Virus genome (UHGV): UHGV-1550212
Source of the DNA: a virus
DNA: 64,000 bases
Strand: one strand, 5' to 3'
Shown in pieces: positions 201 through 62,291 of the stretch. The position numbers and the translations under genes are program-made. How positions within the stretch are numbered: the stretch's first letter is position 1; each line of letters opens with the position of its first letter. The notes beneath the pieces were generated by a model that worked only from the letters and a program-made list of their open reading frames with translations, did not search any database and was not told the origin of the DNA.

Positions 201-224
201 GGTTGCTTGGGGGTGGGGGGGTCA

Positions 225-3020: not shown

Positions 3021-3051
3021 GTCTGTAAATTGAGATGTTTGTATATGTATA

Positions 3052-3059
3052 TTGTACAA
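3052..3059 (-). promoter_or_regulatory. TTGTACAA palindromic promoter-associated motif about 30 nt upstream of topoisomerase start
   Basis: same palindrome followed by AT-rich tract recurs upstream of many minus-strand genes. Confidence 0.4.
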
Positions 3060-3207
3060 CAAGAATGCAAAACTTGCACTGAAAATATACACATTTTCAC
3101 ATAACAGCAAGCATAATGCCAAGCAGCACTGCAAGACATATCAAACCTATGCCAAGAACAATAAAGTCCAGCATAGAATACGTGTCATTAGACTGTTTCA
3201 TAAGTAG

Positions 3208-5218: not shown

Positions 5219-5473
5219 CTAAAATGTTAACTGTAATGACTTGATATTGCTGCATTCGATTTTTAACATGGCCAACTTGTCATGTGCAGCCATTGCGTCA
5301 TATTTGATGTTTGCAATTTCGAGCTTTTGTGCAATTTTGTATGCAGTGGCAGCATCAGTAGATATGCAGATGCAATTGCCAATGACTATATTTGCTGCAT
5401 CTGTTATGTTAACTTTGCATGCATTATCATTGTTATCAATGACTTCGATGCATTTGATTGAGTTAAAGTCCAT
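5219..5473 (-). CDS. hypothetical protein (84 aa)
   Basis: ORF track; ATG at 5473; TATAAATA on coding strand about 33 nt upstream. Confidence 0.4.
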   Translation of the reverse strand: MDFNSIKCIEVIDNNDNACKVNITDAANIVIGNCICISTDAATAYKIAQKLEIANIKYDAMAAHDKLAMLKIECSNIKSLQLTF

Positions 5474-5505
5474 ATTGCAGAGGTTTAGTATATTTGACTC
5501 TATAT

Positions 5506-5513
5506 TATTTATA
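5506..5513 (-). promoter_or_regulatory. T4-type late-promoter-like box (TATAAATA on minus strand)
   Basis: plus strand reads tatttata; embedded in a ~40-nt block shared with the region upstream of gene 19686..20558. Confidence 0.35.
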
Positions 5514-5677
5514 GATTAATACTACACACTTGCAGATTTTGCACTTAATTGATAAATAATTTGTAAACATTTTCACAAACTTTTAACAGCTCTTTCGCTT
5601 ATGAAAACTACTCAACTCTGGTTTGAACGCCAGCAGTCAATCGCGGGGGGGCTCTTCGTGCTCCTGATTACATAGAT

Positions 5678-6370
5678 GTGCGGTTTACGCTCGTAGATGA
5701 TATGAGCATACATTGTGCATATATGCCAAACATATATGTGTTTGCTGATGGCAATGAGTATGCAATATCTCCAATAGGTTCACAATCACTTGATTATGAC
5801 GGCTCATGTATTGTACGTATTACCAAGTCAGACTGGATTGAAATGTTTGGCGCTGGTGTTACACAAGGCAGACTTAAATTTGGCTATGGTACAAATGAGC
5901 TTGAATTTTGTGAATTGATAAGCACTGCAACTGCTGAAGTCAAATTCGTTATTGGTTATGAGCAAAACCAGTCTGTCACTGCAACATTTAGTGATTTGCT
6001 GCATAATCCACTTGTCGCAACAAACAACAATTCTGCACAAGCAACAATTACATATACATTTAGTCATGCGACATTTAGAACAGCAGCATTTACGATTATC
6101 GGTAATGTGACATTTATTCCAGGCGGTGATGTAAGTAAAACAGCTATAATTCTTGCGCCTAATTATAGTATAACAATTAAGTACACTACGTCATCAACGC
6201 CAAAACTATTTGAGCATTCAATGACATTTGAGCGTAACAATGAAATGCTTGAGTATGTTGGCACTGAAGTAGACAGACATGCGTATTGTCAAATGAGACG
6301 TAGAACTACGGGCTCAACTGTATATTGTCATGTGTATATTGATGATAGCATGCTTAATATGATGGATTGA
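5678..6370 (+). CDS. hypothetical Thr/Ser-rich protein (230 aa; non-ATG start in track, first ATG near 5702)
   Basis: ORF track; plus-strand gene in a minus-strand context, preceded by a G7 run. Confidence 0.4.
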   Translation: MRFTLVDDMSIHCAYMPNIYVFADGNEYAISPIGSQSLDYDGSCIVRITKSDWIEMFGAGVTQGRLKFGYGTNELEFCELISTATAEVKFVIGYEQNQSVTATFSDLLHNPLVATNNNSAQATITYTFSHATFRTAAFTIIGNVTFIPGGDVSKTAIILAPNYSITIKYTTSSTPKLFEHSMTFERNNEMLEYVGTEVDRHAYCQMRRRTTGSTVYCHVYIDDSMLNMMD

Positions 6371-6390
6371 TAGTTGTAATATTGCGCAAA

Positions 6391-9766: not shown

Positions 9767-12700
9767 TCAATTACATGCTGAATGTCCGCAGTTGGTGCAT
9801 CGAACACAGCCATCAAACTTGACCATGTCACCGCCGCATTCAGGACACTTTGCATACATCTTTGAGCCATCTTGAATATGCAGTTTCAATGCGCGCCCAA
9901 TTGCTTTGCAGAATGTTCCGACAGATGCAAAGCTTTTTGCAGTTTGGTCGACAATTTCGCCAAGGTCAATGCCATTGCGAAGCATCGTTGAGTACAGTCG
10001 AGTAATTGTTTGCTGCTCGTCTGAACCAAGACGTTCTGAGATATTATCATAGTGCTGCAAGAATGACAAATTATCACCAAGCTTGTAGTGCTTCTTATCA
10101 GTCTTTGTGATTGTCGTTTGTTCAATGCCTTGCAACTTGTCGAATTCATCTTTGTCAAGTTCAAATGCAAAGATTTCATAAGGTCGACCGTCATCACAGC
10201 CTACAAGAATACACCACTTGCGCTTATACACTGACACGCAATACACTGCAGCAGGCAATACTGGTTTTCGTTTTGAGCGATGACCAGATTGCAAGATGTG
10301 CGACTTGTCTTTTGACTGCTTGTCATCTTTTACGAGAACACCTGCACGTGAGCCATCTCGATAAATTGTGCAGCCTTTGCAGCCAGATTTCCATGCAGTC
10401 AGATAAATTTCACGAACAAGCTCTTTTGTTGCAGAGTTTGGAATGTTGACCGTTACAGAAATTGACGAGTCAATGTATTTTTGCAATGCACCTTGCAATT
10501 TCACCTTGCCAATCCAGTCAACATCTTCAGTAGTTGCCTTGTAGTATGGTGATTGAATAAGCAATTCATCAATGACTGCTTGCGGAGCATTTGACAACCA
10601 AGCTTTGATGCGAGACATTTCTGCTTCTGACCATTCAATGCCAGTATCTTTGACAAGAGTAAATTTGCCATCGCCAAGCTGCACTCGTTTACAAATCCAC
10701 TGCATCAACGGATAATGAACTACAGCGTATTCAATGAACTTGTCACCAGTAGTCTCATCAATGAAGTTGATGTCGGCCTCATTATCAACTGCAGTTGGCT
10801 TACGACGACGTTTATGTAGTGGCATAAATACGGGCTCAATACCAGACGTTGTCTGAGTCATCAAAGCTGTAGTGCCTGTTGGTGCAATTGTGGTCGTGTT
10901 AATGTTTCGACGGCCAAATTGCTGATAAGTTTTGATGTGCTCATCATCAATCAGTTCAGATAGCATACGCTGGATGAACTTTGATTGCACATCTGTGTCA
11001 TAGTCAAATATTGCAAATGAGCCACGAATCTTTGCCAAGTCAATTGACGCTTCATAAGTCGCCTTTACAAGCCATTGTTGCATAGTGACTGCGAAGTCAA
11101 TTGACTCCTGCGAGCCATAACGCAAGCCAAGCATCGCCATTGCATCGCCAAGCGCAAGGAAGCCCATGCCATATCGACGAGTGTTTGTCAGTTTATCATA
11201 AACTTTGTGCCACAAGTCAAGTTCAGTCTTTTTGATGTCAAAGTCTTCTTTATCTGACCGAACCTTTGCAATGATTCGTTGCACTGCTTCAATTTCAAGC
11301 TGCACAAGGTCATCCATGATGACTGCACAGTCATATGTATCTTTGTAGAATGTCTCAAAGTCAAATGATGCATCAGCAGTCCAAGGATTAAGCACATATG
11401 CAGTCAAATTGCGATGCGACAAAATGCAGCTTGCATATGCAGCGAGAGGCTGTTCACCGCAATTTAGTGTATTGACTACTTGCTTGTCATTGACAGCAAT
11501 AAAGAAATTGTGGAAGTCTTCTACTGTGCCATTGTACACATCTGCTTTGTTCATGTGACGTGTTGCAACGACTTTGACAATTGCATCACCAGTAGTGTCA
11601 ATGTCTGCATATTTGCTGCAGTCACCTAACGCTGCGCAAGCATCACAGCAATATGCTTGTTCACGATTGTCATAAGAAACTTCGAATTCTTTACCACAGC
11701 ACTCGCATTGTTTGATAACTGTGTTTCGTTCTGTTTTTACAAGCTCGTCAGTCTTCAATGCAATTGATAGCTTATCTGCGCTTGGCATATCAATTGCCCA
11801 CAATGAGTCATTTGTTGCAAGGTCAATTGCATTCTTGAAATCGCCATTAGCAAGCCTGAACTCATGATTTGCTGTGCAATTGATGACATGGCCGTCATCA
11901 AGCACAATTTGAATGATTTGCGCATTATGTGCAGTCAATCTGGGTCGACGCATTGTGCGCACAACGAGCTTGCCATTAGAGTCAAGACAATATACTGGAA
12001 TGTCTTCACCACTATCAGCAAGCTCTTTGAATGTCTTCAAACCTGAGCCATCAGCAACAAGTACTTTTGTGTCACCTGTGAAGCATGGATTTGTTGAGCG
12101 CTCTTCATACATTTTGCCATATGCTTTCGAGTTCGACTCTTCCATGATACGGTCCCAGAAGAACACGCCGGGTTCTGCAGATGCCCATACGTTATCAACA
12201 ATTTTGTCAAACAATGCTTTTGCATCTGATGTCTTATGCAGCTCTTGGCCATTAGAGCCACGCCAAACATGCTCAAACTGTTGTTCTGCAAGCACTGCAC
12301 GCATAAATGCATCAGTAAGCTTGATTGAAATGTTTGCGCCTGTGATTTTCGTCAAGTCCTTTTTTGCATCAATGAACTTATCTGCGTCAGGATGCTCAAT
12401 TGACAATGACAACATCAATGCGCCACGCCTGCCATTTTGTGCAACTTCTTTTGTTGATGTTGAAAAACGTTCCATAAATGACACTACACCAGAAGTTGTA
12501 ATAGCACTGTTATGCACTTCTACGTCTTCTGGACGAATGTGCGACAAATCATGACCAACGCCACCACGACGCTTCATCAACTGAACTTGCTCTTCATCTG
12601 TTTTGAAGATGCCGCCATATGAATCTGCGTCATTGCCAATTACATAGCAATTTGACATTGACGTGTAACCGCCAAGACCAATACCAGCCATTGGAGAACC

Positions 12701-12988
12701 ACCAAGCACAAACCGCTTAAAAGGCTCAAGTAAATATGCAAGTCGTTCTTTTGACAATACACGTTTGCCTGTCTGTTCTTCAAATTGTGATTCGATGCGG
12801 TCAAATTCATTGACCCAGCGCTCATGCATATCAGACAATGAGTGTTCATACAAATTGTCTTTGTCATGATGCAAGTATTTTGACATGCATATGTCAGCAG
12901 CCATTGAATCGCCTGTAAATTCATGCGTCAGTGTAGTGTGCACTTCAGCATATTCAGGCGACCCAATTTGAATGGGATGTTTTGTCAT
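9767..12988 (-). CDS. nrdJ: class II (adenosylcobalamin-type) ribonucleotide reductase with intein and C-terminal zinc ribbon
   Basis: active-site motif STNP/CGEQPL interrupted by intein; C-terminal CPECGG...CVRCTNCGHSAC zinc-ribbon tail; ATG at 12988 (track start 13048 is TTG). Confidence 0.75.
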   Translation of the reverse strand: MTKHPIQIGSPEYAEVHTTLTHEFTGDSMAADICMSKYLHHDKDNLYEHSLSDMHERWVNEFDRIESQFEEQTGKRVLSKERLAYLLEPFKRFVLGGSPMAGIGLGGYTSMSNCYVIGNDADSYGGIFKTDEEQVQLMKRRGGVGHDLSHIRPEDVEVHNSAITTSGVVSFMERFSTSTKEVAQNGRRGALMLSLSIEHPDADKFIDAKKDLTKITGANISIKLTDAFMRAVLAEQQFEHVWRGSNGQELHKTSDAKALFDKIVDNVWASAEPGVFFWDRIMEESNSKAYGKMYEERSTNPCFTGDTKVLVADGSGLKTFKELADSGEDIPVYCLDSNGKLVVRTMRRPRLTAHNAQIIQIVLDDGHVINCTANHEFRLANGDFKNAIDLATNDSLWAIDMPSADKLSIALKTDELVKTERNTVIKQCECCGKEFEVSYDNREQAYCCDACAALGDCSKYADIDTTGDAIVKVVATRHMNKADVYNGTVEDFHNFFIAVNDKQVVNTLNCGEQPLAAYASCILSHRNLTAYVLNPWTADASFDFETFYKDTYDCAVIMDDLVQLEIEAVQRIIAKVRSDKEDFDIKKTELDLWHKVYDKLTNTRRYGMGFLALGDAMAMLGLRYGSQESIDFAVTMQQWLVKATYEASIDLAKIRGSFAIFDYDTDVQSKFIQRMLSELIDDEHIKTYQQFGRRNINTTTIAPTGTTALMTQTTSGIEPVFMPLHKRRRKPTAVDNEADINFIDETTGDKFIEYAVVHYPLMQWICKRVQLGDGKFTLVKDTGIEWSEAEMSRIKAWLSNAPQAVIDELLIQSPYYKATTEDVDWIGKVKLQGALQKYIDSSISVTVNIPNSATKELVREIYLTAWKSGCKGCTIYRDGSRAGVLVKDDKQSKDKSHILQSGHRSKRKPVLPAAVYCVSVYKRKWCILVGCDDGRPYEIFAFELDKDEFDKLQGIEQTTITKTDKKHYKLGDNLSFLQHYDNISERLGSDEQQTITRLYSTMLRNGIDLGEIVDQTAKSFASVGTFCKAIGRALKLHIQDGSKMYAKCPECGGDMVKFDGCVRCTNCGHSACN
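11462..12085 (-). mobile_element. intein (~208 aa) inside nrdJ at the NPC|GE active-site motif
   Basis: begins CFTGDTKVLV (block A), TANHEF (block B), VYNGTVEDFHNFFIAVND (block F), ends ...NTLN followed by Cys+1; Cys-rich CECCGK...CCDAC insert instead of a LAGLIDADG domain. Confidence 0.65.
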
Positions 12989-13038: not shown

Positions 13039-13058
13039 CAATGGGCAAAATTTTGCAT

Positions 13059-13104
13059 CAACTCAAAACAGCCAAGCAATTCATTGCTTGGCTGTTTTGA
13101 GTTG
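13059..13104. terminator. 46-bp perfect palindrome (22-bp arms, 2-nt spacer), likely terminator
   Basis: caactcaaaacagccaagcaat tc attgcttggctgttttgagttg. Confidence 0.5.
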
Positions 13105-13115
13105 ATGCGCACCTG

Positions 13116-13296: not shown

Positions 13297-13752
13297 TTAT
13301 TGTGCTTTACCAGTGTAATAAGTGATTGCATCAATGTAAGGCTGTTCTTTAGACATTAGCCAATCAATGCCAAATACTGTATCTTGACGAAATCTTCGTT
13401 GTGCAATCATTTGAACTTCGATTGGCATATCTACGTCCTTGCCAAATCTGATTGTATTTGCAAGTTCTGTGATTGCATATCTGAGAATTGTGTCAGTACT
13501 CATTGTTAATGTGCTTTCCGGCAATTGCCAGTAACGTTCTTGGAATGCTCGATTTGCTGAGTAAGTCCAAAGTTCAAGTCTTGCATTTCTGCAATCATAT
13601 GAAACAATCAGACTTAATCCTTTTGTCCAGCAATGTGCTATCTTAATGATAGGGTTGTTGTCATTGATTGATGACATTGCTTGCAATCTTTCGAAATCTT
13701 TAACATATCTGTTATCATTCGAAAGCTGTTCCATTATTTCACCGTAAGTCAT
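13297..13752 (-). CDS. hypothetical protein (151 aa)
   Basis: ORF track; ATG preceded by conserved leader aacctctactaca shared with genes starting at 20558 and 62168. Confidence 0.5.
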   Translation of the reverse strand: MTYGEIMEQLSNDNRYVKDFERLQAMSSINDNNPIIKIAHCWTKGLSLIVSYDCRNARLELWTYSANRAFQERYWQLPESTLTMSTDTILRYAITELANTIRFGKDVDMPIEVQMIAQRRFRQDTVFGIDWLMSKEQPYIDAITYYTGKAQ

Positions 13753-13941
13753 TGTAGTAGAGGTTAAAATATATTAATATATAATAATTATACTACAAAG
13801 TTGTCAGATTTGCACCAGAATGTATAACAAGTTTGCATAAAAGTTTTACATAAAATGCAAACAAAACAAGCAGACTGCAATTGCAGCCTGCTTGCGCCAA
13901 AACAGAAAAAGATGATAACTTACTAACCCAAAAACCTAACT

Positions 13942-19611: not shown

Positions 19612-19629
19612 GATGTGTATGCTTATGAA

Positions 19630-19656
19630 AGGAAGAGCTCAATTGAGCTCTTCCTG
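19630..19656 (-). terminator. terminator hairpin (palindrome aggaagagctcaattgagctcttcct)
   Basis: perfect inverted repeat with the same caattg loop as hairpins at 22852 and 35654. Confidence 0.55.
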
Positions 19657-19685
19657 ATAGTCAACTTGATAAACCTCTACGAAAA

Positions 19686-20558
19686 TCAAGCCTGACTACT
19701 TTTGTTGATTACGAGATACTTGTATCGTTCTTTGATTGTGATGTTCTTTGATTTTGCAGCCTCGATTTCTTTGCGTTCCTTGGAGGAATAGTTGAACTTG
19801 ATATAGTCGGAGAACAATTCGGGCTTATCTGCTACTTCATTGTTCTTGACTTCTTTTACAAGAGTTTGCTGAAACTCATTGATTGTAGTGAAACCGAGGA
19901 ATGACTGGAACTTGTTAAGCGGAAACAGCTTATCTGTGTTGTCCTCGAATGTCGGGAATTCGTCAGAATACGTAATTTCAATTTGGTCTACAAAATATCT
20001 GAGTTTTTCCCAGGGTTCCTTGCCAATGAGGAGAATGTTCTGATGGTCGAGTTTTTCCTCGAACATTTCCAGGAGACATTCGTATGATTTTACGAGACGA
20101 ACTCCAGGATATGTAATTGATGCAATTGAACGAGGTTTGTGAGTCGTCTTAACTTCTTTATTGTACGTTTCCTCGTCAATGCAATAGATGTATCGCTTAA
20201 CCTTGTCGTATTCTTTAGGAAGATAGTTGTTGTCAAGGAATTGCTTGTCAACTACAATGAAACTGAAAGGATAGAGTTCATTGAATCGTTGGCGAAGCTG
20301 TTCTGTTGCAAGGAAGAAATGCGAGCCATCTTTTGCTGCAAATTCCATATTTGAATTGCATCCTGCATATGCAATGTATCTGTTTCGCTTCCATTTGAGG
20401 AATCGACTTACCAGGTTCTTTTCGAAGATGTCCTTGTATTTGAAGTTAGTGTCCCAGTACTCCTTAACAATTCCATCTTGCATTTTTCTTGACAATTTTG
20501 AATTGTCTACCGGCCTATCAGTAAAAACTGAAGGTTTGTTTGCGTTGTATAATCCCAT
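19686..20558 (-). CDS. hypothetical protein (290 aa) with atypical C-ending codon usage
   Basis: ORF track; TATAAATA late-promoter-like box and conserved leader upstream; codon usage resembles the capsid gene rather than neighbours. Confidence 0.5.
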   Translation of the reverse strand: MGLYNANKPSVFTDRPVDNSKLSRKMQDGIVKEYWDTNFKYKDIFEKNLVSRFLKWKRNRYIAYAGCNSNMEFAAKDGSHFFLATEQLRQRFNELYPFSFIVVDKQFLDNNYLPKEYDKVKRYIYCIDEETYNKEVKTTHKPRSIASITYPGVRLVKSYECLLEMFEEKLDHQNILLIGKEPWEKLRYFVDQIEITYSDEFPTFEDNTDKLFPLNKFQSFLGFTTINEFQQTLVKEVKNNEVADKPELFSDYIKFNYSSKERKEIEAAKSKNITIKERYKYLVINKSSQA

Positions 20559-20653
20559 TGTAGTAGAGGTTTGTTAATTTATTATTTATAGATATATAAT
20601 ACTACGACAATGCAAATTTTGCACTGTCGTAGCATAAAAGTTTACACATTTTT

Positions 20654-25232: not shown

Positions 25233-25368
25233 ATGATATGATATATATCAAGTGCAGCAATTGAACAGATTGCAAAAACAATGCTCAGACTGTAAAGTCT
25301 GAGCATTGAACGACTAAATTGTACATCTTCCACAATGATATAGAATCATTGTTAATATTGTATTGATA

Positions 25369-25453
25369 TTGTACAACATGCATTGCATATTTGCAATGAT
25401 ACAACATGCAAAATGCACTTGCACTTTGATGCAAAGTACTGCGTACACAACAT
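25369..25453 (-). promoter_or_regulatory. intergenic regulatory cassette: TTGTACAA motif plus 29-nt element duplicated at 26556..26584
   Basis: 25425..25453 tttgatgcaaagtactgcgtacacaacat is identical to 26556..26584; 25369..25408 nearly identical to 18138..18178. Confidence 0.45.
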
Positions 25454-25482: not shown

Positions 25483-26505
25483 TCATTGTTGTTTATGCCA
25501 GCCATATGATGCCTGACCAGCATCATACACTTCTACGAAGCCATGGTCGTACATAAAATCTTCATTACGAGTGCCCTTGCCCCCATTAGTGCCAAGAATA
25601 CGGTCTGCGCCATGCATAAGCAGCATATTATTTGTGACATGTTGCTTTGTCAGCATATTGAACCAGTGTTTGCTATATGACAAGCCAAGACCATCAAAGC
25701 CCAGCTTTGTGTACACACCACCGTCAAACTTGCTTAAATCACAATATGATAACACAGATTCAGGGTCATATGTCTTGATAAAGTGCTTAAAGATTCGTTC
25801 AGCACCACCAACAACTTTGGTTGCTGCACAAAGACGTAGCAATTCATATTGATAGCGCTTATTGTATCGTGGACGACCAAATGTCATAAGTTGATGAATG
25901 ACATAACCACCAAGCAACTCAAGTGGATGACCTTCAATCAACGCAAGATTGATAAAATTGCCTGAGCACTTGCCTTGCAAATGATGTTCAATCAAAAATT
26001 GATTTGCAGTATACTTGTCAATTTCAACAACTTTAAGCTTGCGAGCATATACAATCTTTGATTTGTCTACGATTTGATGCTTGATGTGATTGATAACTTT
26101 CTTGGCGTCATCCCAGTCCCACACATGAATGCAATGAAAGCCTGCTGATTTGGCGATGTCTGTTTTCTTTGCATGAATATCACAAGGCAAATGCGAATCT
26201 TTTGCATCATGCATAAACAGATGTTCAAATGAATGTGTGCTGTTATGTGAAAATGCAGGATTGATGTTAATGACAATATTGTCATGTCGAAAATCGAAGA
26301 CTTCATCGCCAATGACAAAGTTGCGCTCAAAATTTATACCGACATGTTTGAGTAACACTTGATGCCACACATCTTTATAGGCTGATTCAAGCTTGCTTAG
26401 CTCATCACAGTTTGCAATGTTTTTGTAACGTTGAATAGCAGCATCAAAGTCAAGATTGACTTCAGCGTAGTCTGCATTTTTATCGTAGTGAAATTTTGAG
26501 CTCAT
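25483..26505 (-). CDS. Vsr/DUF559-like nuclease-domain protein (paralog family; N-terminal nuclease module, extra C-terminal domain)
   Basis: NIVININPAFSHNS and GFHCIHVWDWDD match the family module; C-terminal GFVEVYDAGQ tail; ATG at 26505. Confidence 0.5.
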   Translation of the reverse strand: MSSKFHYDKNADYAEVNLDFDAAIQRYKNIANCDELSKLESAYKDVWHQVLLKHVGINFERNFVIGDEVFDFRHDNIVININPAFSHNSTHSFEHLFMHDAKDSHLPCDIHAKKTDIAKSAGFHCIHVWDWDDAKKVINHIKHQIVDKSKIVYARKLKVVEIDKYTANQFLIEHHLQGKCSGNFINLALIEGHPLELLGGYVIHQLMTFGRPRYNKRYQYELLRLCAATKVVGGAERIFKHFIKTYDPESVLSYCDLSKFDGGVYTKLGFDGLGLSYSKHWFNMLTKQHVTNNMLLMHGADRILGTNGGKGTRNEDFMYDHGFVEVYDAGQASYGWHKQQ

Positions 26506-26528
26506 GTGTATAATTTTGTATGAGATTA

Positions 26529-26536
26529 TTGTACAA
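26529..26536 (-). promoter_or_regulatory. TTGTACAA promoter-associated motif
   Basis: about 20 nt upstream of ATG 26505. Confidence 0.4.
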
Positions 26537-26612
26537 CATGCAAATGCATGTTGCATTTGATGCAAAGTACTGCGTACACAACATAAAGTACAAGTTTGTC
26601 TTTTGATAGACT

Positions 26613-27674
26613 TTACTTTGTATTGCTACGCGTCATTGTTAAATGACCGCAATCATACACATCAACTTCTGTTTTGCCAAGCATGCATGTATGACAATTT
26701 ATTTTGAAATCTGCTGCAGCGTAATCAGGATAGTTTAGTGGAGATTCTTTTGACAAATCAATTTCAATTGTGTCAGTAGTTTTAAGCTGTTCAGTACCTG
26801 CAATGATATCTGCAATAAGATTGATAACTTCTTCTTGTGAATCCCAATCAAACACAGTTATGCAACGATAGCCTACATCAAGTGCAAGTTTTGTTTTATT
26901 GTAATGGTATTGCGCACCAATAACATTGTTGTCTTTTGCTCGACCAGTTAAATATGCAAAACTAACAGTGCAGTTGTGCGTAACTGTTGGACAAATTTCT
27001 ATAAGTAACTTTGCAGGCTCATACTGCAAATCATATGTTTGATTATTGATGTTAAACTCGTACTGTGTATCAATTGCCAACTGTCGTAATAACGCATCAT
27101 GCCACATCATATTACATTTAGAAATTGTTTTGGATGACAATCTGCATTGAGGCAATTGACATGGCCAATCTACGCCGTACATTTGTTGTGTTGTTTGACG
27201 CATTTTGTTAACATCACCAAAATGATTGCCATATCGATGCTCTTTGGTTTTAAGCGACTGCTCAATATTGACATTGCCTACACAACCATAACGTTCAAGT
27301 TTTGTTGCAGCAGTTTTGCTAACATCACCATGTCCATTACCAAATTTGGCGACTTTAGTTGCAAGTATTTTATGACTTGGGCCAAATGCATTGCCATACA
27401 ATTCTTGTTTAGTCGCAAGCATTTTGTCGATATTACAACCAGCGCCATAAGTGTTATGCATAGTTTGCATACGCTGTCGAATAAATTTTGGCACAGATAA
27501 AGGACTTTCTACACCATATTTGCGTAAGCAACTGATTTTGCATGCGTACTTTTGCTTGATGACAGAATGTGCATTTCGACGTCCTATGTAAGTATTTTCT
27601 GATGTAGCAGCAAGCTCTGCATCTCTAAGAACTTCAAGTGCAGCAATTCGTGCTTCAATTTCTTCAGATGTCAT
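26613..27674 (-). CDS. RYG-repeat / Vsr-DUF559-like nuclease (putative free-standing homing endonuclease)
   Basis: seven ~21-aa tandem repeats each with R/K-Y-G (KYG, TYG, LYG, KFG, RYG, RYG, MYG); C-terminal LLIEICPTVTHNCT...GYRCITVFDWDS...VDVYDCGH. Confidence 0.55.
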   Translation of the reverse strand: MTSEEIEARIAALEVLRDAELAATSENTYIGRRNAHSVIKQKYACKISCLRKYGVESPLSVPKFIRQRMQTMHNTYGAGCNIDKMLATKQELYGNAFGPSHKILATKVAKFGNGHGDVSKTAATKLERYGCVGNVNIEQSLKTKEHRYGNHFGDVNKMRQTTQQMYGVDWPCQLPQCRLSSKTISKCNMMWHDALLRQLAIDTQYEFNINNQTYDLQYEPAKLLIEICPTVTHNCTVSFAYLTGRAKDNNVIGAQYHYNKTKLALDVGYRCITVFDWDSQEEVINLIADIIAGTEQLKTTDTIEIDLSKESPLNYPDYAAADFKINCHTCMLGKTEVDVYDCGHLTMTRSNTK

Positions 27675-28021: not shown

Positions 28022-29737
28022 TCAAATCCAGCCGTAGTCGCTGTGGATAGCGAAGGTGAGATAAGCCAACTCGGGATACATACCCGTCTCCGCGAGAGCG
28101 TAATCCGACTCAATCAGCAACTTAGGTGCTGCTGTACCCTCAGCGGTTAATTCCACACTTGATGCAAGGTCATATGGCATGAATACACATCCCTGGTTGA
28201 CATTCTCTACGTCAACGCCGTCAGCAGTCTTGTTCGTACGAAGAACGAGAACAGTGTTATCGTTCAGCGGCTGCTTAGGATTGCAATAGATTTTAATGCC
28301 AGCCAAGTCACCTGCATAATACAGGTTCTTGTTGTCCTGTACCAGCGTATTGTCAAGAGCTGCAACAAAGTTCTTCTGAGCCTTAATTGCAACCAAGGCA
28401 ATCGTATTGACCACAGCAGCATCACCAGCACCGAAACGCGACAGGTTGCCAATGATTGTCGAAGCAGCCAGGATACGAGTTGCGATACGAGCCTGACGGG
28501 TAATCTGGTTCTCAGCCGAGCTGTTCGATTCAGCGTTAGGAACCATGCCGAACTCAGCCGTGCGGTCTACACCCATCTTGTCAACGAATGCAGGAGCCTG
28601 GAATTCCGAGAATGCCTTGGCAGTCGAACCAGCGTAGCCAATGTACAAGTTCAGGTTGTAGCCCTGAGCAGCCAACAGCTGAGCATGTGTCGTAACACCA
28701 AGTGCACGCATGCGCTTCAGACCATTGTCGTTGATTGACTGCGTGATTTCATTCTGCATTGCATTCTTGATGATTGCAACTGCATCCAAACCGCGAGCAC
28801 GGAGGTCCTTAACCTGGCGACGAGTCAGAGCACCCCAAGTCTGGTACGTCTTAACTTCGATAGCCTTTGAGAAGGTGCGGAGCTCCAGCATGTTCGGGTT
28901 GCCAGCCTCAGCCTCAGAACGAGACATTGGATTGCCGTCAAGGTCATCCATTGCAGCGAAGCCGTGGATGTGTTCGTCACCAGCCGAAACCAGGTCGAAC
29001 ATAACCTCAGTCATGCCAGTCAGCATGTCAGTTACAGCACCTGTAGCGTCAACCGAGTAGATTTTCGATGCAGCCATTGCAACATCAGCCAACGACTTGT
29101 CAGGAGCAACAGTCATTGCGCCACCAGCGCCAACGGTATATACGCCTTCATTGCGAACTACGAGGTAGCCTGCAACACGCGATACCTGTACGAACGTTAC
29201 CTTGGCAGCAAGCTCACCAGCAGCTGAACCGCCGATGTACAGAACTTGACCCTTCTTGAGGCCATGAACCATTGTCTGCGAAGCAACATTGTACAACTCC
29301 TTCCACTTGATGAGGAAGTAGCGAGGACCCTTGGCTGCGTTCAACTTGCCACCACCATACACGTAGTCTACATAGTCCAGCTGAACCAGCGGGCTGTATA
29401 CAGGAATGGCCGGGAGCAGGTCGAACAGAATCGTGTTGGCTGCGATGTTCATGTTCAGAGCCAGAACATTGGCAGCTACATCGATTGAACCACGCTTACG
29501 CGACGGGTCATGGAACTGTGCTTGCGTACCTGGGTCAGCAGGGAAAGCGACCGGACCTACGCCATTGAGATTCTGCGAATACGTCGACTCAAACGACTCG
29601 TTCATATACTGAACGTTCTGAGCGATTGATGCGAGCAGATACTTCTTAGCGGGCGAAAGCTTGGAGTCAAACGACTCATCAAGAACAGGGCCCCACTTTT
29701 TCAGCAATGCATCAATCTGTGTACGTTTTGCGTTCAT
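28022..29737 (-). CDS. major capsid protein (T4 gp23-like)
   Basis: N-terminus MNAKRTQIDALLKKWGPVLDE parallels the gp23 N-terminal pattern; 571 aa; markedly GC-rich C-ending codon usage; followed by a strong terminator. Confidence 0.7.
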   Translation of the reverse strand: MNAKRTQIDALLKKWGPVLDESFDSKLSPAKKYLLASIAQNVQYMNESFESTYSQNLNGVGPVAFPADPGTQAQFHDPSRKRGSIDVAANVLALNMNIAANTILFDLLPAIPVYSPLVQLDYVDYVYGGGKLNAAKGPRYFLIKWKELYNVASQTMVHGLKKGQVLYIGGSAAGELAAKVTFVQVSRVAGYLVVRNEGVYTVGAGGAMTVAPDKSLADVAMAASKIYSVDATGAVTDMLTGMTEVMFDLVSAGDEHIHGFAAMDDLDGNPMSRSEAEAGNPNMLELRTFSKAIEVKTYQTWGALTRRQVKDLRARGLDAVAIIKNAMQNEITQSINDNGLKRMRALGVTTHAQLLAAQGYNLNLYIGYAGSTAKAFSEFQAPAFVDKMGVDRTAEFGMVPNAESNSSAENQITRQARIATRILAASTIIGNLSRFGAGDAAVVNTIALVAIKAQKNFVAALDNTLVQDNKNLYYAGDLAGIKIYCNPKQPLNDNTVLVLRTNKTADGVDVENVNQGCVFMPYDLASSVELTAEGTAAPKLLIESDYALAETGMYPELAYLTFAIHSDYGWI

Positions 29738-29825
29738 GATTGAATTTGTTTGTTATTGAAAGTGAAACATATATTTCTGTATAATATGTATAGAACTACT
29801 GACATTGATTGAATTGTGAAAATGG

Positions 29826-31217
29826 TCATTTTTCAATCTTTTTGAGCAATGCATGACCACAATCATAGACTTCGACGAAGCCTGACGCAATCATTTGTTG
29901 CCTATCAAACCCATTGTCAAGTAGATGTTCCCATGTCTTTGTATTGTGCCAATGCAATTGAATTGATGATTTATCTGTACTAAGCTGCGGATTTTTTGAA
30001 AAGTCTGCACAGTCAATTTTGTCACCGTTAAGATGCTTACGAATGCATTCAATGACAGTGTCGTGGTCATCCCAGTCCCATATTGTTATGCATACATAGC
30101 CATGTTGTAATGCAATTTGTGTCTTGTCAAAATGACTATCATGTCTCTTTGGCCTATTACGCTTTGTGCGCTTAGTAATATATGCATATGAGTATGTTGA
30201 GTTATGCGAAAATGTTGGATTCACTTCAATCAACAATTTGCAATGTTCATTTTCATAATGCAAGTCATATGAAAAGCCAAGTAGCTTAACATCGTCATAA
30301 CTGCAATCAATGTTAAGCTCTTGTTGCAACTTATCATGCCAAAATTGATTTGGCTTAGATATTATGTTGCCTTGACTGTTTATGCAGTTAGAAGTCATAC
30401 ATGACCATGGCACGCCATAACGCTCAATGTTTGTTTTGTTTGCACTTGCTTGAATTTTTGACAATGGGCCCCATGGATGACCATACTTTGCACGCTTGAC
30501 ATCTGCACCACGTTTAGCAACTTCACGATAATCGCCATAACGCTCTTTTCTTGTAGCAAGCATTTTTGCAATATTGCCCGCGCCACGAGAGCCATATCTA
30601 AGCTCTTTAGTCTTTTGAGCTTTGGCGTAATCACCACAAAATGCATTGCCATATCGAGCAATTTTTGTTGCTTTCATTTTTTCAATGTTGCCTGCACCAG
30701 CATTGCCATAACGTTCAAGTTTTGTTTGCTTGGACAATTCAACATTGCCAAATTTGTTGCCATAACGCACTAATTTTGTTTCTTGTGAACGTTGACGTAT
30801 TTCTTGCACTTGTGCACAGTATTCTACGCCATAGCGTTTTAACATTGTTATTCGTTGATTATATGCACGTTTAATAGGTGCATGCGATGTTCGTTTTGGC
30901 CCATATTTAACAAACTCAGTAGATGCAAGTAATTCATCACGCTCACGTTCAAGTTCTGCAATTCGTTGTTGTATATGGACATCATACACAGGCTGCTCAG
31001 AAATGTCATCAATAGCTGTCGTTTCTAATTTAGCAAGTTTGCGTTTAAGAGCTTTTGTTGTTTGCGTGCAGCTCATTTTTATCAATGCATGTGCATGTCT
31101 GCCACAGTCAAGTACAATGTTAGGCTCATTTGCAAGGCGTTCATCACGTTTACATTCTGCAGCATGTATTGCATCAATAAGTTGTCGTCTCTTTACATTA
31201 TATTCGTCTTGTGTCAT
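29826..31217 (-). CDS. RYG-repeat / Vsr-DUF559-like nuclease (putative homing endonuclease)
   Basis: tandem repeats (KRYG, VRYG, ERYG, ARYG, LRYG, ERYG, AKYG, ERYG); C-terminal FSYDLHY...LLIEVNPTFSHNS...GYVCITIWDWDD...FVEVYDCGH. Confidence 0.55.
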   Translation of the reverse strand: MTQDEYNVKRRQLIDAIHAAECKRDERLANEPNIVLDCGRHAHALIKMSCTQTTKALKRKLAKLETTAIDDISEQPVYDVHIQQRIAELERERDELLASTEFVKYGPKRTSHAPIKRAYNQRITMLKRYGVEYCAQVQEIRQRSQETKLVRYGNKFGNVELSKQTKLERYGNAGAGNIEKMKATKIARYGNAFCGDYAKAQKTKELRYGSRGAGNIAKMLATRKERYGDYREVAKRGADVKRAKYGHPWGPLSKIQASANKTNIERYGVPWSCMTSNCINSQGNIISKPNQFWHDKLQQELNIDCSYDDVKLLGFSYDLHYENEHCKLLIEVNPTFSHNSTYSYAYITKRTKRNRPKRHDSHFDKTQIALQHGYVCITIWDWDDHDTVIECIRKHLNGDKIDCADFSKNPQLSTDKSSIQLHWHNTKTWEHLLDNGFDRQQMIASGFVEVYDCGHALLKKIEK

Positions 31218-31333
31218 AATTATCTGTGTTTAATTTATGTATACTATTGTATTGTAGCATTGACTACTTTGCGCATAACAAAAAAGAAGCCAAGTCATTT
31301 GACTTGGCTTTGAAATGTGTACTTGCAGTTGTA

Positions 31334-31950: not shown

Positions 31951-32646
31951 TCATCGTACAGTGAATGAATTATCGTCATCTTCTGTAGTAGTTGGGTCAT
32001 CAATTACATCGTGGCCAATACCTGACATGGGCTCTGGCTCAGGTTCCGGTTCAGGTTCCGGTTCAGGTTCCGGTTCAGGCTCCGGTTCAGGTTCCGGTTC
32101 AGGTTCCGGTTCAGGTTCCGGTTCCGGTTCCGGTTCAGGTTCCGGTTCAGGTTCCGGCTTGGGCTTTGATGAATAGTTAAACATCTTGTGAATCCATTTG
32201 CACCACCATTTGTGACATGCATGTGCGCCATCATGATAATACGCTTGCAGCTCCATTGGAATTGCATGATATGCTTTGTCATGTGACATACCTTTGAATA
32301 TTCGCAAGTACACATAGCACAAGCAATATGCAATGTAGTACATAAGCGGTGATGCAAGCAGCCACCACCAGCTAAGCACATTGCATGCTGCAAGCACAAT
32401 AAGTACAAGCAACGTCGCAAGTGTTACAAAGATGAATTGCTTTGCATGCACAGCTTCATGCTTCAAGGTCTCAGAGTATCTGCTAAGTGTGTCATCATAT
32501 GACTTATCACTTCTTATGAAGCACATTGCACACAACGACATTGCATAATAATGTGAAAATGGAATGCATGGCTGGTCGATGACAAGCATTGGTCCAGCAA
32601 ACCACAGTCGCCACTGAGATTTATTTGGCAGTGTTGCAGTTTTCAT
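31951..32646 (-). CDS. membrane protein with HExxH motif and long (Pro-Glu)n repeat
   Basis: HEAVH motif next to two hydrophobic helices, then about 25 PE dipeptides and an acidic tail. Confidence 0.5.
32029..32160 (-). repeat. hexanucleotide tandem repeat (ggttcc/ggttca)n encoding (Pro-Glu)n
   Basis: about 22 near-perfect 6-bp units with a 12-bp super-period. Confidence 0.9.
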
Positions 32647-35547: not shown

Positions 35548-35653
35548 GTTCGTTATCGTATTTGTTGTAAATTGTGAAATGTTGCTTTGTTTGATTATAA
35601 CTTGATATATGTATGTATATGATGACATCAAACATGTTGTTGACCAAAATCAA

Positions 35654-42961: not shown

Positions 42962-42981
42962 TTTTGTATTGCTTTGAATAT

Positions 42982-48405: not shown

Positions 48406-49604
48406 TAACTGTCATACGACCAGTGACCACAGTCATACACTGGCACAAATCCAGTGTCAAGCATTTCTTGCTCAATAAAGCCATCATCAAGCAAATGTTC
48501 ACCTGACTTCGTATTGACCCAATGCTTCTTAATTGTGCATTCATCAACCACAAAGGGATTAAGTGCATTGTCAGTGCAATCAATGAACACATTATTCAAA
48601 TGCGCGTCAATGACATGCAGCACAATTTCTGGGTTGTGCCAATCAAATATCATAAGTGGCGTGTAGCCACATACAATTGCAAGTTGTTGCTTCCACCAAT
48701 GATAGTTTGGCTGTTTTGCTTCTGCGGCATTTCGTTTAAAGCCATACACGCTATTATGAGTATGCGTCGGGTTAACGTCAATTAGCAGATTGCCATAATA
48801 CAGGTCATATGATGTTATGCCAACATCATGTTCAAACTCAAAATGCACACCAAGATGTTCTTCAATGTATGATTGCCACCATCTGTTTGGCGCAGATATG
48901 ATTTGCCCATTTGCTTGCATACATTTATTTGTCATGCAAAACCATGGCACACCGTAACGTTCCATACAGGTTTTTGAAATTGCAGCAAGCCATTCATCTT
49001 TGTCTCTATGCGGCCATGCATAACCATAACGCAGACGACATGTTTGTTGAGCTTTAGCAACGATTGGCGCTAAACGTTCACCGTATATTTCACGTTTAGT
49101 TGCGATGGCTTTGCGTGGATTAGTCCATCCAGCATCACCCCATCGCTCAAGCTTCGTTTGCTGAGATTTTTCAACAATCAGTTCAAGATTCTCACCATAT
49201 TTTTGACGACGAGTTTGCATTGCTGCAACATAATCTGTAATGCATCTATGGCCATACAAACGTTCTTTTGTCGCACTATGTGCTTTATCGCCATATGAAC
49301 TGCCGTAGCGTGCAACTTTAGTGGCAATTGTTTGCTTGATGTTGCCTGCTTTAGAACCATAACGAGCTTCTTTAGTTGCTACGCATTTTTGTTTGACTTC
49401 TGCTCTGTTCCAATTATGCTCAACGCCATGTTTACGAAGATGGCCAATTTTCATGTTGTACACGTTTTTGATATGACCATGAGATGTCTTACGTGGTGCA
49501 TATCGTACAAATGGTGTTTCTGCAAGCAACTTATCTCGTTCAGCTTCAAGCTCTTTAATTCGAGCTTCAAGAGCTTCACCAGTCAAATGCTCTACATGTT
49601 TCAT
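48405..49604 (-). CDS. RYG-repeat / Vsr-DUF559-like nuclease (putative homing endonuclease)
   Basis: N-terminal ALEARIKELEAERD, tandem RYG repeats, LLIDVNPTHTHNS...GYTPLMIFDWHN...FVPVYDCGH. Confidence 0.55.
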   Translation of the reverse strand: MKHVEHLTGEALEARIKELEAERDKLLAETPFVRYAPRKTSHGHIKNVYNMKIGHLRKHGVEHNWNRAEVKQKCVATKEARYGSKAGNIKQTIATKVARYGSSYGDKAHSATKERLYGHRCITDYVAAMQTRRQKYGENLELIVEKSQQTKLERWGDAGWTNPRKAIATKREIYGERLAPIVAKAQQTCRLRYGYAWPHRDKDEWLAAISKTCMERYGVPWFCMTNKCMQANGQIISAPNRWWQSYIEEHLGVHFEFEHDVGITSYDLYYGNLLIDVNPTHTHNSVYGFKRNAAEAKQPNYHWWKQQLAIVCGYTPLMIFDWHNPEIVLHVIDAHLNNVFIDCTDNALNPFVVDECTIKKHWVNTKSGEHLLDDGFIEQEMLDTGFVPVYDCGHWSYDS

Positions 49605-50089
49605 TCGTGTTTGCCAGTTTGAAATAACGAATCAATTGGGATGTGAATACCAGGTTTGGATTGAATGTTCCATCCGCGCGCCAAACCATTAAGTACGCAG
49701 CTCGTAAGGTAAGAAAACGCGTTTTGAGTTACTGTTGGGTCAAACATTTGCCACTTTGACGCCAAAATTAACATGGCTTCTGCTGCGACATCTGCTTGTA
49801 AGTCTTTGTCCCTGTAGTATAAACGTCTCTGCACATGTTTGATAAGCAACTCAAACATGTGTATAAGTTTATTTGACAGCTGTCCAGATACTTTGCATGC
49901 GCATATTTCTGCACAAAGTTCTTTGCTGTTGATGTAATAGTTTGATGGCTGACCTCGCTTCTTTGTGTTTGCAGCTTCTTCACGAAGTTGGTCTTCAAGT
50001 TGTGTCAACATGTCATCATCTGACACGTATTGAATATGCTTGTCTTCTGGTAGTTTAGATTCTATTGGTTGTAAGTTTTGCAGTGGCAT
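49601..50089 (-). CDS. late transcription sigma factor (T4 gp55-like), putative
   Basis: YYINSKELCAEI...AMLILASKWQ...NAFSYLTSCVLNGLARGW parallels gp55 conserved regions; ATG at 50089 downstream of TTGTACAA motif at 50119. Confidence 0.5.
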   Translation of the reverse strand: MPLQNLQPIESKLPEDKHIQYVSDDDMLTQLEDQLREEAANTKKRGQPSNYYINSKELCAEICACKVSGQLSNKLIHMFELLIKHVQRRLYYRDKDLQADVAAEAMLILASKWQMFDPTVTQNAFSYLTSCVLNGLARGWNIQSKPGIHIPIDSLFQTGKHE

Positions 50090-50153
50090 AGCAGTGAGCA
50101 TTAAAATTCCTATATAAATTGTACAACGCTTTGTGCACATTTGCAATCATAAA

Positions 50154-62168: not shown

Positions 62169-62291
62169 TGTAGTAGAGGTTTGTTGTGTTCTGTATATTA
62201 TGTTCGAATATATGAGGACATATATTATATATAGATATATTACAACACGCAAATCATTTTTGCACACTTTTATAAACCAAATTTCACAAAA

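Follow-up and report, generated by a model that had tools for sequence, protein, structure and literature searches.

Four unrelated genes in the analysed stretch of DNA (UHGV virus genome UHGV-1550212, 64,000 nucleotides, hereafter the window) stand behind one reused cassette of promoter plus leader, about 100 nt long. The window belongs to a T4-like jumbo phage from human gut metagenomes that is distant from T4. The explanation that we consider probable for the whole is a dual-promoter regulatory cassette present in four copies in a T4-related gut jumbo phage, whose host is probably a member of Bacteroidota. It builds on directly observed repeats, motif classes with their gene associations, a gp55 homologue, indel junctions, codon bias and a protein fold. 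The original prediction of a co-regulated gene set is supported by the cassette, which is common to the four genes.

All cassettes lie on the minus strand, and their parts follow one another in the same order (alignment A2): an AT-rich stretch, the box TGCA-N4-5-TGCA, the element GT[T/A]GTAnnAT, the box TATA[A/T]ATA, and a leader free of G with the core AAACCTCTAC. The TGCA-N4-5-TGCA box grows into a stem-loop in some of the copies, with a palindrome of 14 bp in cassette 1 and shorter palindromes in the other three. Cassette 1 (20559..20653) is the intergenic segment upstream of the gene starting at 20558. An AT-rich block is followed by a 31-nt palindrome or stem-loop, CTACGACAGTGCAAAATTTGCATTGTCGTAG (20632-20602), the -10-like GTAGTATTAT (20605-20596), the box TATAAATA (20590-20583) and the leader core AAACCTCTAC (20572-20563) ahead of the ATG at 20558. 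Its promoter part is kept before the homologous gene down to 45-47% protein identity, and the arms of the palindrome covary in two relatives (L022 and L028). Cassette 2 (13753..13880), upstream of gene 13297-13752 (151 aa), carries TGCAAATCTGACA...GTAGTATAAT (13814-13787), an AT-only stretch that includes the degenerate box TATATATT, and the leader core AACCTCTAC (13765-13757; ATG at 13752). In cassette 3 (5474..5600), upstream of gene 5219-5473 (84 aa), TGCAAAATCTGCA...GTAGTATTAA (5543-5516) and the box TATAAATA (5513-5506) precede a variant leader core, AAACCTCTGC (5486-5477; ATG at 5473). Cassette 4 (62169..62291) serves gene 61932-62168 (78 aa, one predicted membrane helix) and includes GTGCAAAAATGATTTGC...GTTGTAATAT (62264-62237), the box TATATATA (62233-62226) and the leader core AAACCTCTAC (62182-62173; ATG at 62168); a divergent plus-strand gene starts beside it, at 62292. 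Comparison of the four cassette-driven proteins with Pfam and PHROGs gave no match at the curated level. A weak, sub-threshold match of the 13297-13752 protein to DUF7000 was the sole signal among them.

A leader common to the genes starting at 13752, 20558 and 62168 had been claimed, and was borne out by three exact copies of AACCTCTACTACAATG, all on the minus strand (13750, 20556 and 62166) and each ending in a start codon. With two mismatches tolerated, 0.03 copies are expected by chance, and none of the shuffles gave three. Re-reading the sequence also confirmed the identity of 21 nt between the leaders at 20556 and 62166, that is, between the sites of genes 20558 and 62168 (aacaaacctctactacaatgg). 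A variant of this leader is found at the fourth gene (5219-5473). The core occupies positions -14 to -5 relative to the start codon, and all four sense-strand copies of AACCTCT in the window are leaders. Comparison of seven leader contexts shows a constant core and variable flanks. The leader of cassette 2 is unchanged in relatives L010 and L030-L033, while cassette 4 of relative L037 retains the core between flanks that differ on both sides. A scan with the leader 16-mer returned 2 real and 11 chance matches.

Positions -1, -3, -6, -12, -13 and -14 of the leader, ...AAACCTCTACTACA-ATG, are A; it is free of G and has no Shine-Dalgarno sequence. Positive determinants of initiation in Bacteroidia are A at -3, -6, -12 and -13 (Baez et al. 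2019, PMC6847099), and initiation regions without Shine-Dalgarno sequences are also marked there by low structure or pairing propensity (PMC6847099). All four adenines are present in the cassette leader, which resembles these Kozak-like regions in its low pairing propensity as well. It differs in that the phage repeats 13-21 nt verbatim, whereas in Bacteroidia only those positions are enriched (PMC6847099). No adenine known to promote initiation on Bacteroidia ribosomes, which ignore Shine-Dalgarno sequences, is missing from the leader. Because the leaders lack such sequences, the host is apparently a member of Bacteroidota, an assignment drawn from these leaders and from the hosts of relatives.

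Judged by its sequence, the conserved block of the cassettes is a subtype of a putative general promoter family, in which TGCA-N4-5-TGCA is followed by GT[T/A]GTAnnAT and which comprises 15 copies. A scan with the general pattern gave 19 matches where 3.2 were expected, and the coding strand has 16 of these. Members are located upstream of the genes for topoisomerase II, ribonucleotide reductase, both halves of DNA polymerase B and the gp55 homologue, and also, among others, of homing-endonuclease-like genes. As an illustration, the topoisomerase II gene is preceded by an element (3044..3078, minus strand) in which TGCAAGTTTTGCA is followed by GTTGTACAAT and then by TATACATA, and which is conserved in the relative L015. 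Other GT[T/A]GTA cores are found at 13039, 18146, 25377, 26537, 27704, 50127, 54461, 55444, 58267 and 60360. Both standard promoter models were dropped: the Bacteroidetes promoter (TTTG-N18-22-TAnnTTTG) did not occur in coding-strand intergenic regions, and a sigma-70 scan (-35/N17/-10) revealed no enrichment. The family itself matches neither sigma-70 spacing nor the Bacteroidetes TTTG/TAnnTTTG consensus. Because it precedes genes of replication and nucleotide metabolism and mismatches the host consensus, it would represent a middle-type promoter dependent on a phage factor.

The late promoter of T4, TATAAATA, is read by gp55, gp33 and gp45 (Nolan et al. 2006, PMC1524935), and a T4-type late promoter was taken here to lack a -35 element and to have this 8-mer, or one close to it, near positions -13 to -6. 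Exact boxes in a conserved block had been described at genes 5473 and 20558. They are present there, on the minus strand at 5506-5513 and 20583-20590 (alignment A2), in coding-strand orientation and 25 and 33 nt upstream of the ATG, but their count alone is at chance level (two found against 1.39 expected, with 42 of 100 shuffles reaching two). A second promoter element is positioned directly upstream of both. In place of the exact box, cassettes 2 and 4 carry the variants TATATATT and TATATATA. The looser box TATANATA is enriched (13 found, 4.7 expected); ten of the 13 are on the coding strand, nine of these 18-66 nt upstream of corrected start codons. Stand-alone boxes, likewise on the minus strand, occur too. 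At the major capsid gene (28022-29737), TATACATA is found 48 nt upstream (29785..29792) with no TGCA/GTTGTA element, TATA[C/G]ATA-type boxes are found before a neighbouring gene (31236-31243) and at the sheath gene (35612-35619; true ATG at 35546), and the portal gene has TATAGATA (42979-42986). Exact TATAAATA occurs upstream of the capsid gene in the relative L015 and in the cultured Chryseobacterium phage MA9V-1, and the sequence that follows the box in the latter, ATTTAACAA, is similar to that at 20558.

The window also encodes a gp55-like late sigma factor (49601..50140, minus strand; phrog_234 'late sigma transcription factor', E = 2.4e-7). Its match to Sigma70_r2 is weak and under the Pfam cut-off, its true start is probably the ATG near 50098, and its homologue in MA9V-2 is annotated 'sigma-70 region 2'. 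This gene has a general-family promoter of its own, with the core GTTGTACAAT at 50127-50118. A T4-type late box at the cassettes is plausible. Likeness to the T4 late promoter (PMC1524935) consists in the exact 8-mers at their distances from the start, the gp55 homologue, and similar boxes upstream of structural genes in the window and its relatives. Differences are that structural genes of the window use TATA[C/G]ATA, a drift for which the Aeh1 late box CTAAATA is a known precedent, and that the box is here fused to a second promoter element and present at topoisomerase and reductase genes too. Since the general promoter of the topoisomerase and reductase genes is likewise followed by TATACATA, the cassette box could instead form part of the initiation region of the general promoter class. 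Since the same type of box stands alone before structural genes, the cassette box would be read by the gp55-like late sigma factor of the phage.

If both promoter assignments hold, the cassette genes would be transcribed in both the middle and the late period; timing, promoter activity and expression level are the putative parts of this explanation. Of the set anticipated as 'probably late', the late character retains a plausible late-type box and a gp55 homologue, but the box directly follows the promoter element found at polymerase, topoisomerase, ribonucleotide reductase and gp55 genes, so that dual promotion is likelier than purely late expression. A purely late regulon, in which no promoter but the TATAAATA-type box is active, the TGCA/GTAGTA part serves as a terminator or is a relic, and expression is late only and abundant, seems unlikely to us. 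The gp55 homologue, the late-type boxes that precede structural genes here and in relatives, the capsid-like codon usage of gene 19686-20558 and a palindrome that could stop upstream transcription would all agree with it. It is, however, difficult to reconcile with retention of the TGCA/GT[T/A]GTA element before the orthologue in relatives where the TATA box is unrecognisable (L018, L024), or with the position of this element before replication genes elsewhere. In addition, nearby genes are those of nucleotide and sugar metabolism, and clear codon bias is missing in three of the four genes.

Codon usage was assessed for all cassette genes. The gene behind cassette 1 (19686..20558, minus strand), whose 290-aa product has a dihydrofolate-reductase (DHFR) fold, does share the C-ending codons of the major capsid gene, as claimed: its two-fold pyrimidine-ending codons have a C/(C+T) of 0.589, where the background is 0.394 (binomial p = 3.6e-5) and the capsid gene has 0.651. 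Compared by log-likelihood of capsid-like codon choice with the other minus-strand window genes of at least 75 aa, it ranks first; the genes for the sheath and the prohead protease and a probable tail gene score lower. The corresponding C/(C+T) values are 0.44 for 13297-13752, 0.27 for 61932-62168 and 0.54 for 5219-5473 (borderline, p = 0.05). High expression, predicted for the set as a whole, is thus supported by codon usage for 19686-20558, but the other three genes have no clear bias. Nor does the description 'of unknown function' still fully apply to this gene, given the fold of its product. The fold is common to the DHFR family, including T4 Frd (PDB 1juv), from which the protein differs by extra N- and C-terminal parts and by the lack of a sequence-level match (no match to Pfam DHFR and none to PDB profiles at E <= 10). 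The candidate catalytic acid E86, equated by eye, is Q in homologues, and the family alignment shows no conservation at this position. Besides a homologue of the 290-aa protein, MA9V-1 has a canonical DHFR.

The cassettes mark boundaries of insertions and deletions, and in a 94%-identical relative they adjoin insertions and replacements. In cassette 3 of L039, an additional ORF of 76 aa comes after AAACCTCTAC, which identifies the window variant AAACCTCTGC as a deletion junction, and its surroundings also include a non-homologous stretch of ~ 700 nt. A replacement is found downstream of the cassette 2 gene in a relative, and cassette 1 of L003 is chimeric. Before the DHFR-fold gene, the 94%-identical relative has TATACATA, the form of the capsid gene, where the window has TATAAATA; because the -10/TATA part of the relative matches the window cassette at 62168, exchange between cassettes is indicated. 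A megablast search with 4 kb against the phage collection found no close relative.

That the copies are nearly identical is best accounted for by duplication and by recombination between cassettes, as with PeSL cassettes. T4-type phages have repeated intergenic cassettes known as PeSL and PmSL (Arbiol et al. 2010; Comeau et al. 2014, PMC4122927). Like the cassettes described here, these combine an AT-rich stretch and a stem-loop with a promoter, a leader and a start codon, and they occur beside small variable ORFs and at the borders of indels or replacements that distinguish close relatives (PMC4122927). Their promoter is sigma-70-like (-35/N17/-10) or of the Mot-box type, whereas here it is TGCA-N4-5-TGCA with GT[T/A]GTAnnAT. 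They have a Shine-Dalgarno sequence in place of the G-free A-3/A-6/A-12/A-13 leader, and the present cassettes further differ by the embedded late-type TATA box and the probable Bacteroidota host.

A hairpin is conserved after the stop codon of the DHFR-fold gene, and its loop could base-pair with the shared leader, which suggests a putative regulatory role. This 3'UTR hairpin (19657..19699, minus strand) has a 14-bp stem (19699-19685 with 19670-19657), which includes the stop codon, and a 14-nt loop, UUUCGUAGAGGUUU (19684-19671), in which the bases GUAGAGGUUU are a perfect 10-nt complement of the leader core AAACCUCUAC. The z-score of the fold is -6.7, and 98% of cells are paired in the stem, compared to 21-50% in controls with slid partners. 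The block is conserved in L022, L023 and L025. In L022 the loop is invariant and five of the 14 stem pairs are compensatory, a covariation whose basis is just two independent lineages. An intrinsic terminator hairpin, GGAAGAGCUCAAUUGAGCUCUUCC, followed by UUU, is found at 19627..19655 (minus strand), and L022 has a terminator of unrelated sequence at the same position. Both the complementarity of the hairpin to the leader and the position of cassettes at indel boundaries had escaped the original prediction; the hairpin is new.

No Rfam family matched at the gathering score and no tRNA was found in the whole window. Scanning viral contigs for more copies of the loop disclosed only the known relative and two matches judged to be chance, and a search for a leader and 3' complement of different sequence in L015, L018 and L021 gave nothing convincing. 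Analogy with integron attC was ruled out because the conserved bases of the hairpin sit in the loop and not in the stem. In the screen for 5'-3' pairing within single genes, whole-UTR duplex energies were uninformative because GC-rich terminators dominate them, and were replaced by a test of perfect-match length. Gene 225-734, also flagged by this test, was judged to be chance, because its match falls inside the next ORF.

Several explanations can be weighed for the constancy of the leader core. It is possible, and we suggest it tentatively, that the core is held constant by pairing with the hairpin loop in the 3'UTR of the DHFR-fold mRNA, which would tune the cassette genes; this claim is stronger than that of a dual-promoter cassette and compatible with it. 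Pairing would cover positions -14 to -5, including the determinants A-12/A-13 and A-6, and would set translation or stability of the own mRNA and of at least three other phage mRNAs; any gene recombined behind the mobile cassette would come under control of the loop. In cis, the mRNA would be closed 5' to 3', and in trans, hairpin and terminator would accumulate as a ~ 70-nt 3'UTR-derived small RNA. In favour of pairing, the loop complement is perfect over 10 nt, the loop is unchanged between lineages with 77% protein identity whose stems differ by five compensatory pairs and whose terminators are unrelated, only the core is constant in the seven contexts, and sense-strand AACCTCT is confined to leaders. 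The leader genes are also the top four of 64 initiation regions for pairing with the loop (-14.5 to -13.8 against a median of -5.2 kcal/mol), the predicted late mRNA closes 5' to 3' in minimum-energy and centroid folds, and the window and L022 lineages have core and loop together, whereas more distant relatives have neither. On the other hand, only two independent lineages have the element, and loop and core never vary, so there is no loop-leader covariation. When initiation regions are paired at random with 75-nt 3' regions, 13 of 3306 pairs (0.4%) contain a 10-nt complement by chance, the full-length L022 fold prefers the local hairpin over the long-range helix, two coding-internal sites pair with the loop equally well, and Rfam offers no matching family. 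A G-U pair in cassette 3, first read as compensation, was revealed by the relative to be the deletion junction and not a product of selection. Bacteria have 3'UTR-derived small RNAs such as CpxQ, and hairpin loops of Staphylococcus RNAIII pair with target initiation regions. The likeness is in a seed stem-loop followed by a terminator hairpin at the mRNA end, with the seed complementary to several initiation regions, whereas the candidate here is phage-encoded, predicted from sequence, and directed to targets without Shine-Dalgarno sequences. Initiation regions of T4 e, soc, 49 and I-TevI are sequestered by RNA structure (Uzan and Miller 2010, PMC3014915). There too the helix covers the ribosome landing site beside a late promoter, as it would here, but the T4 partner strand is upstream and missing from late transcripts (PMC3014915), whereas the present one is in the 3'UTR, in every transcript, and could reach other mRNAs.

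It is rather improbable that the leaders are simply recent cassette duplications, the 3' complement a chance match or a relic of an inverted half-cassette, and exact leader and loop functionless. Recombination of cassettes with insertions and deletions at their borders, a 10-nt complement that is not extremely rare, and the lack of core and loop in distant relatives still expressing the gene would be expected under such neutrality; preservation of the core in several contexts while both flanks diverge, invariance of the loop inside a covarying stem despite ~ 23% nucleotide divergence, and the fit of the leader to all four known positive determinants would not. Very unlikely, in our opinion, is that AAACCTCTAC is a protein site, either for a RegA-like translational repressor on mRNA or for a nuclease or recombinase on DNA that mobilises genes between sites. 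Its fixed distance to the start codon is reminiscent of T4 RegA operators (PMC3014915), an insertion/deletion junction falls exactly at the core, the DHFR-fold gene is flanked by inverted copies, and several homing-endonuclease-like genes are within the window. Yet a scan of ~ 60 window proteins disclosed no RegA-like or recombinase family, and the 3' copy lies within a covarying stem, which fits an RNA or single-strand structure better than a duplex site.

Almost nothing is known about how gene expression is timed and tuned in T4-related jumbo phages of gut Bacteroidota, whose hosts translate without Shine-Dalgarno pairing. With the dual-promoter cassette as the preferred explanation, the locus offers two promoter classes that can be separated, together with a gp55 homologue, and a candidate element of RNA-RNA control whose seed and four targets are defined. 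The leader, as a natural 'best' leader without Shine-Dalgarno, might also be of use as an expression tool in Bacteroidota. The idea of mobile regulatory cassettes that drive gene shuffling would be extended to a very distant branch of the T4 superfamily.

The regions preceding the genes that start at 20558, 13752, 5473 and 62168 can be aligned over their entire length of ~100 nt, which indicates that they are paralogous cassettes (cassettes 1-4, in this order). The original prediction of a common leader before genes 13752, 20558 and 62168 was borne out: the 16-mer AACCTCTACTACAATG is present at all three sites and has exactly three copies in the window, compared with 0.03 expected by chance. 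Reading of both sequences also showed the 21-nt identity between the leaders at 20556 and 62166 to be correct. Across seven leader contexts, the sole constant part is a core of 10 nt, always 3-4 nt from the start codon, and all four sense-strand copies of AACCTCT in the window are leaders.

The leader AAACCTCTACTACA lacks G and has A at positions -1, -3, -6, -12, -13 and -14 from the start codon. In Flavobacterium johnsoniae, ribosome profiling and reporters revealed that A at -3, -6, -12 and -13 favours initiation in Bacteroidia blind to the Shine-Dalgarno (SD) sequence, low structure being a further positive determinant (PMC6847099). Because its A positions match these determinants, the cassette leader is predicted to be a near-ideal initiation region for an SD-blind host. 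A/C/U-rich leaders without SD precede start codons, and the closest cultured phages are Chryseobacterium phages MA9V-1/2, Sphingomonas phage PAU and Tenacibaculum jumbo phages, although with capsid identity of only 34-37%. Together, these leaders and the hosts of the relatives point to a Bacteroidota host; the source of homologous contigs is human gut metagenomes.

Transcription in the window proceeds nearly all on the minus strand. T4-type modules comprise the major capsid protein of the Gp23 family (28022-29737), a Gp20-type portal (41168-42961), tail sheath, a prohead protease fusion, the topoisomerase II large subunit, ribonucleotide reductase with an intein, and a split family-B DNA polymerase. 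The polymerase occupies two minus-strand genes (53138-54430 and 56724-58229), each with its own promoter of the general family described below; four genes lie in between (one unknown, one MazG-like pyrophosphatase, one dUTPase-like, one unknown). The intein-like insertion lies in the reductase large subunit (9767-12988, minus strand), where the Intein_splicing match covers residues 318-497 and is under Pfam's cut-off. Five homing-endonuclease-like/DUF7487 paralogues (25483-26556, 26613-27674, 29826-31217, 42982-44220 and 48405-49604) are scattered between structural genes and have repeated DNA segments in common. In addition, a 12-nt unit (GGTTCAGGTTCC...) is repeated in tandem ~11 or more times at 32006-32185, inside gene 31951-32646 on the opposite strand, and a C-rich tract, CCCCCCCACCCCC, lies directly past the stop codon of gene 225-734 (~205-222, minus strand).

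Repeat finding and pattern searches in the window assigned the conserved block of the cassettes to a coding-strand family of ~15 sites, composed of TGCA-N4-5-TGCA (often palindromic), 5-8 nt, and GT[T/A]GTAnnAT. The core pattern has 19 matches where 3.2 are expected, and 16 lie on the coding strand. Outside the cassettes, family sites stand before topoisomerase II, ribonucleotide reductase, both polymerase halves, a GlmU-like gene, homing-endonuclease-like genes and the gp55 homologue, and none was found before any virion gene in the window. Even in relatives with protein identity as low as 45-47%, the element still stands ahead of the orthologue of gene 19686-20558. Since its spacing does not fit a sigma-70 promoter, and the Bacteroidetes TTTG/TAnnTTTG consensus does not fit either, we infer a middle-type promoter that would need a phage factor.

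Several other structures accompany these promoters. At 25260-25395 (minus strand), the layout is attenuator-like: after a promoter (25395-25368) come a very short ORF, a hairpin with a T-run and then a 585-aa gene at 25232; promoter boxes are in tandem duplicate in this region and at 18192/18164. A perfect 54-nt palindrome (terminator, 13055-13108) lies just ahead of the reductase promoter, and the adjacent segment 13109-13286, which has a 52-aa ORF, is exchanged for a different 71-aa ORF in the relatives L031-L033. Upstream of orthologues of gene 19686-20558, a palindrome centred on TGCAAA(A/T)TTTGCA occurs in L028 (~1270-1310) and L022 (~395-425). Its long arms differ by lineage (CCACAAAAG..., ACAGCGA..., CTACGACAG...), indicating that structure is kept and not sequence; terminator and promoter may be combined in this one stem-loop.

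The exact TATA boxes predicted inside the conserved block at genes 5473 and 20558 were both located there, on the coding strand just ahead of the start codon. These are the two copies of TATAAATA in the window, a number not above chance. The looser pattern TATANATA is enriched, with 13 copies against 4.7 expected; of the 10 coding-strand copies, nine sit 18-66 nt upstream of a start codon. Stand-alone TATACATA or TATAGATA precedes the capsid, sheath and portal genes and one neighbouring gene, and a gp55-like late sigma factor is among the window's gene products (phrog_234, E = 2.4e-7). Exact TATAAATA is found before the capsid gene in metagenomic L015 and in MA9V-1, where it is followed by ATTTAACAA, resembling TATAAATAATAAATTAACAA at 20558, and in a 94%-identical relative the capsid-gene form TATACATA replaces TATAAATA at the orthologue of 19686-20558. 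Box enrichment, the boxes at structural genes, the gp55 homologue and the boxes of relatives thus support a T4-type late promoter as a plausible reading; PMC1524935 gives the T4 definition and its known drift, e.g. CTAAATA in Aeh1. Alternatively, the box might be part of the general promoter's initiation region, because the topoisomerase and reductase genes also have TATACATA 3' of that promoter. Taking the box as late-type, the four cassettes would in our reading be dual promoters, middle-type plus late. The proposed co-regulation is supported, and a late-type box is plausible, but with a general promoter element alongside the set is probably not purely late. In cassette 4, the AT-rich palindromic TATA region (62226-62237) also carries TATATATA/TATAGATA on the plus strand, 55-59 nt ahead of the divergent gene 62292-62597, and may be a bidirectional promoter region.

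Comparison with relatives points to recombination between the cassettes, which would explain why the copies are identical. Cassette 1 of the 94% relative has a -10/TATA part that matches cassette 4 of the window and not its cassette 1. At the end of cassette 3 this relative has AAACCTCTAC, and the cassette drives an additional 76-aa CxxC ORF; the window is without this ORF, and the deletion junction yields the window's variant, in which AAACCTCT is joined to GCAATATG. The ~700 nt directly upstream of cassette 3 are non-homologous between the two: in the relative (L039 360-1060, 94-96% identical), unrelated sequence takes the place of plus-strand gene 5702-6370 and its surroundings (5666-6386). 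In other relatives, a replacement also follows the gene of cassette 2. The PeSL/PmSL cassettes of T4-type phages, consisting of an AT-rich region, stem-loop, promoter, SD and start codon, lie at insertion/deletion borders (PMC4122927). The window cassettes behave in the same way, but with another promoter and an SD-less leader, and on sequence grounds they represent mobile promoter-leader cassettes of a PeSL-like type, adapted to a host without SD.

Gene 19686-20558 (minus strand), behind cassette 1, prefers C over T at two-fold pyrimidine-ending codons (59% vs 39% background, p = 3.6e-5) and ranks first among the window's other genes in capsid-like codon choice, followed by sheath, a probable tail gene and prohead protease, as had been predicted. 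High expression of the whole set does not follow equally, since the bias is not clearly common to the other three leader genes. The capsid gene itself (28022-29737) has 51% G+C, compared with 41% in the window, and the strongest preference for C-ending codons. The 290-aa product is a DHFR-fold protein without a DHFR sequence signature, so that, in contrast to the original statement, the function is not wholly unknown. Protein family searches gave no match, sequence profiles found no link to DHFR, conservation is absent at the candidate catalytic acid, and only nine homologues were found among 5.8 billion proteins; in MA9V-1, a canonical DHFR lies two genes from the homologue. Overall, the original observation is confirmed and its interpretation is partly right.

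Directly past the stop codon of this gene lies TTTCGTAGAGGTTT (19684-19671), which ends in an exact 10-nt complement of the leader core; the window has no second copy of this complement. The predicted fold (z = -6.7) has a 14-bp stem including the stop codon, the 14 nt of TTTCGTAGAGGTTT as loop, and then a terminator hairpin. L022, with a protein 77% identical, has the same loop, a stem of different sequence in which both partners of five pairs have changed, and an unrelated terminator. Stem pairing holds in 98% of cells vs 21-50% with slid partners. Among 64 initiation regions, the four leader genes pair best with the loop, and the predicted late mRNA fold pairs the 5' end with the element. 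Two internal coding sites, however, pair with the loop as well as leaders do, a 10-nt complement occurs by chance in 0.4% per pair, the L022 fold favours the local hairpin, and only two lineages carry the element, too few for loop-leader covariation. On this balance a functional leader-loop interaction is possible but rather doubtful. In T4, the initiation regions of genes e, soc, 49 and I-TevI are sequestered in RNA helices (PMC3014915); there the partner is upstream, whereas here the candidate partner is a 3'UTR hairpin loop. The same review, of 2010, states that T4 had no functionally characterised trans-acting regulatory RNA.

New here are an SD-less form of the PeSL-like cassette with a different promoter and, in the 3'UTR, a candidate anti-leader hairpin.
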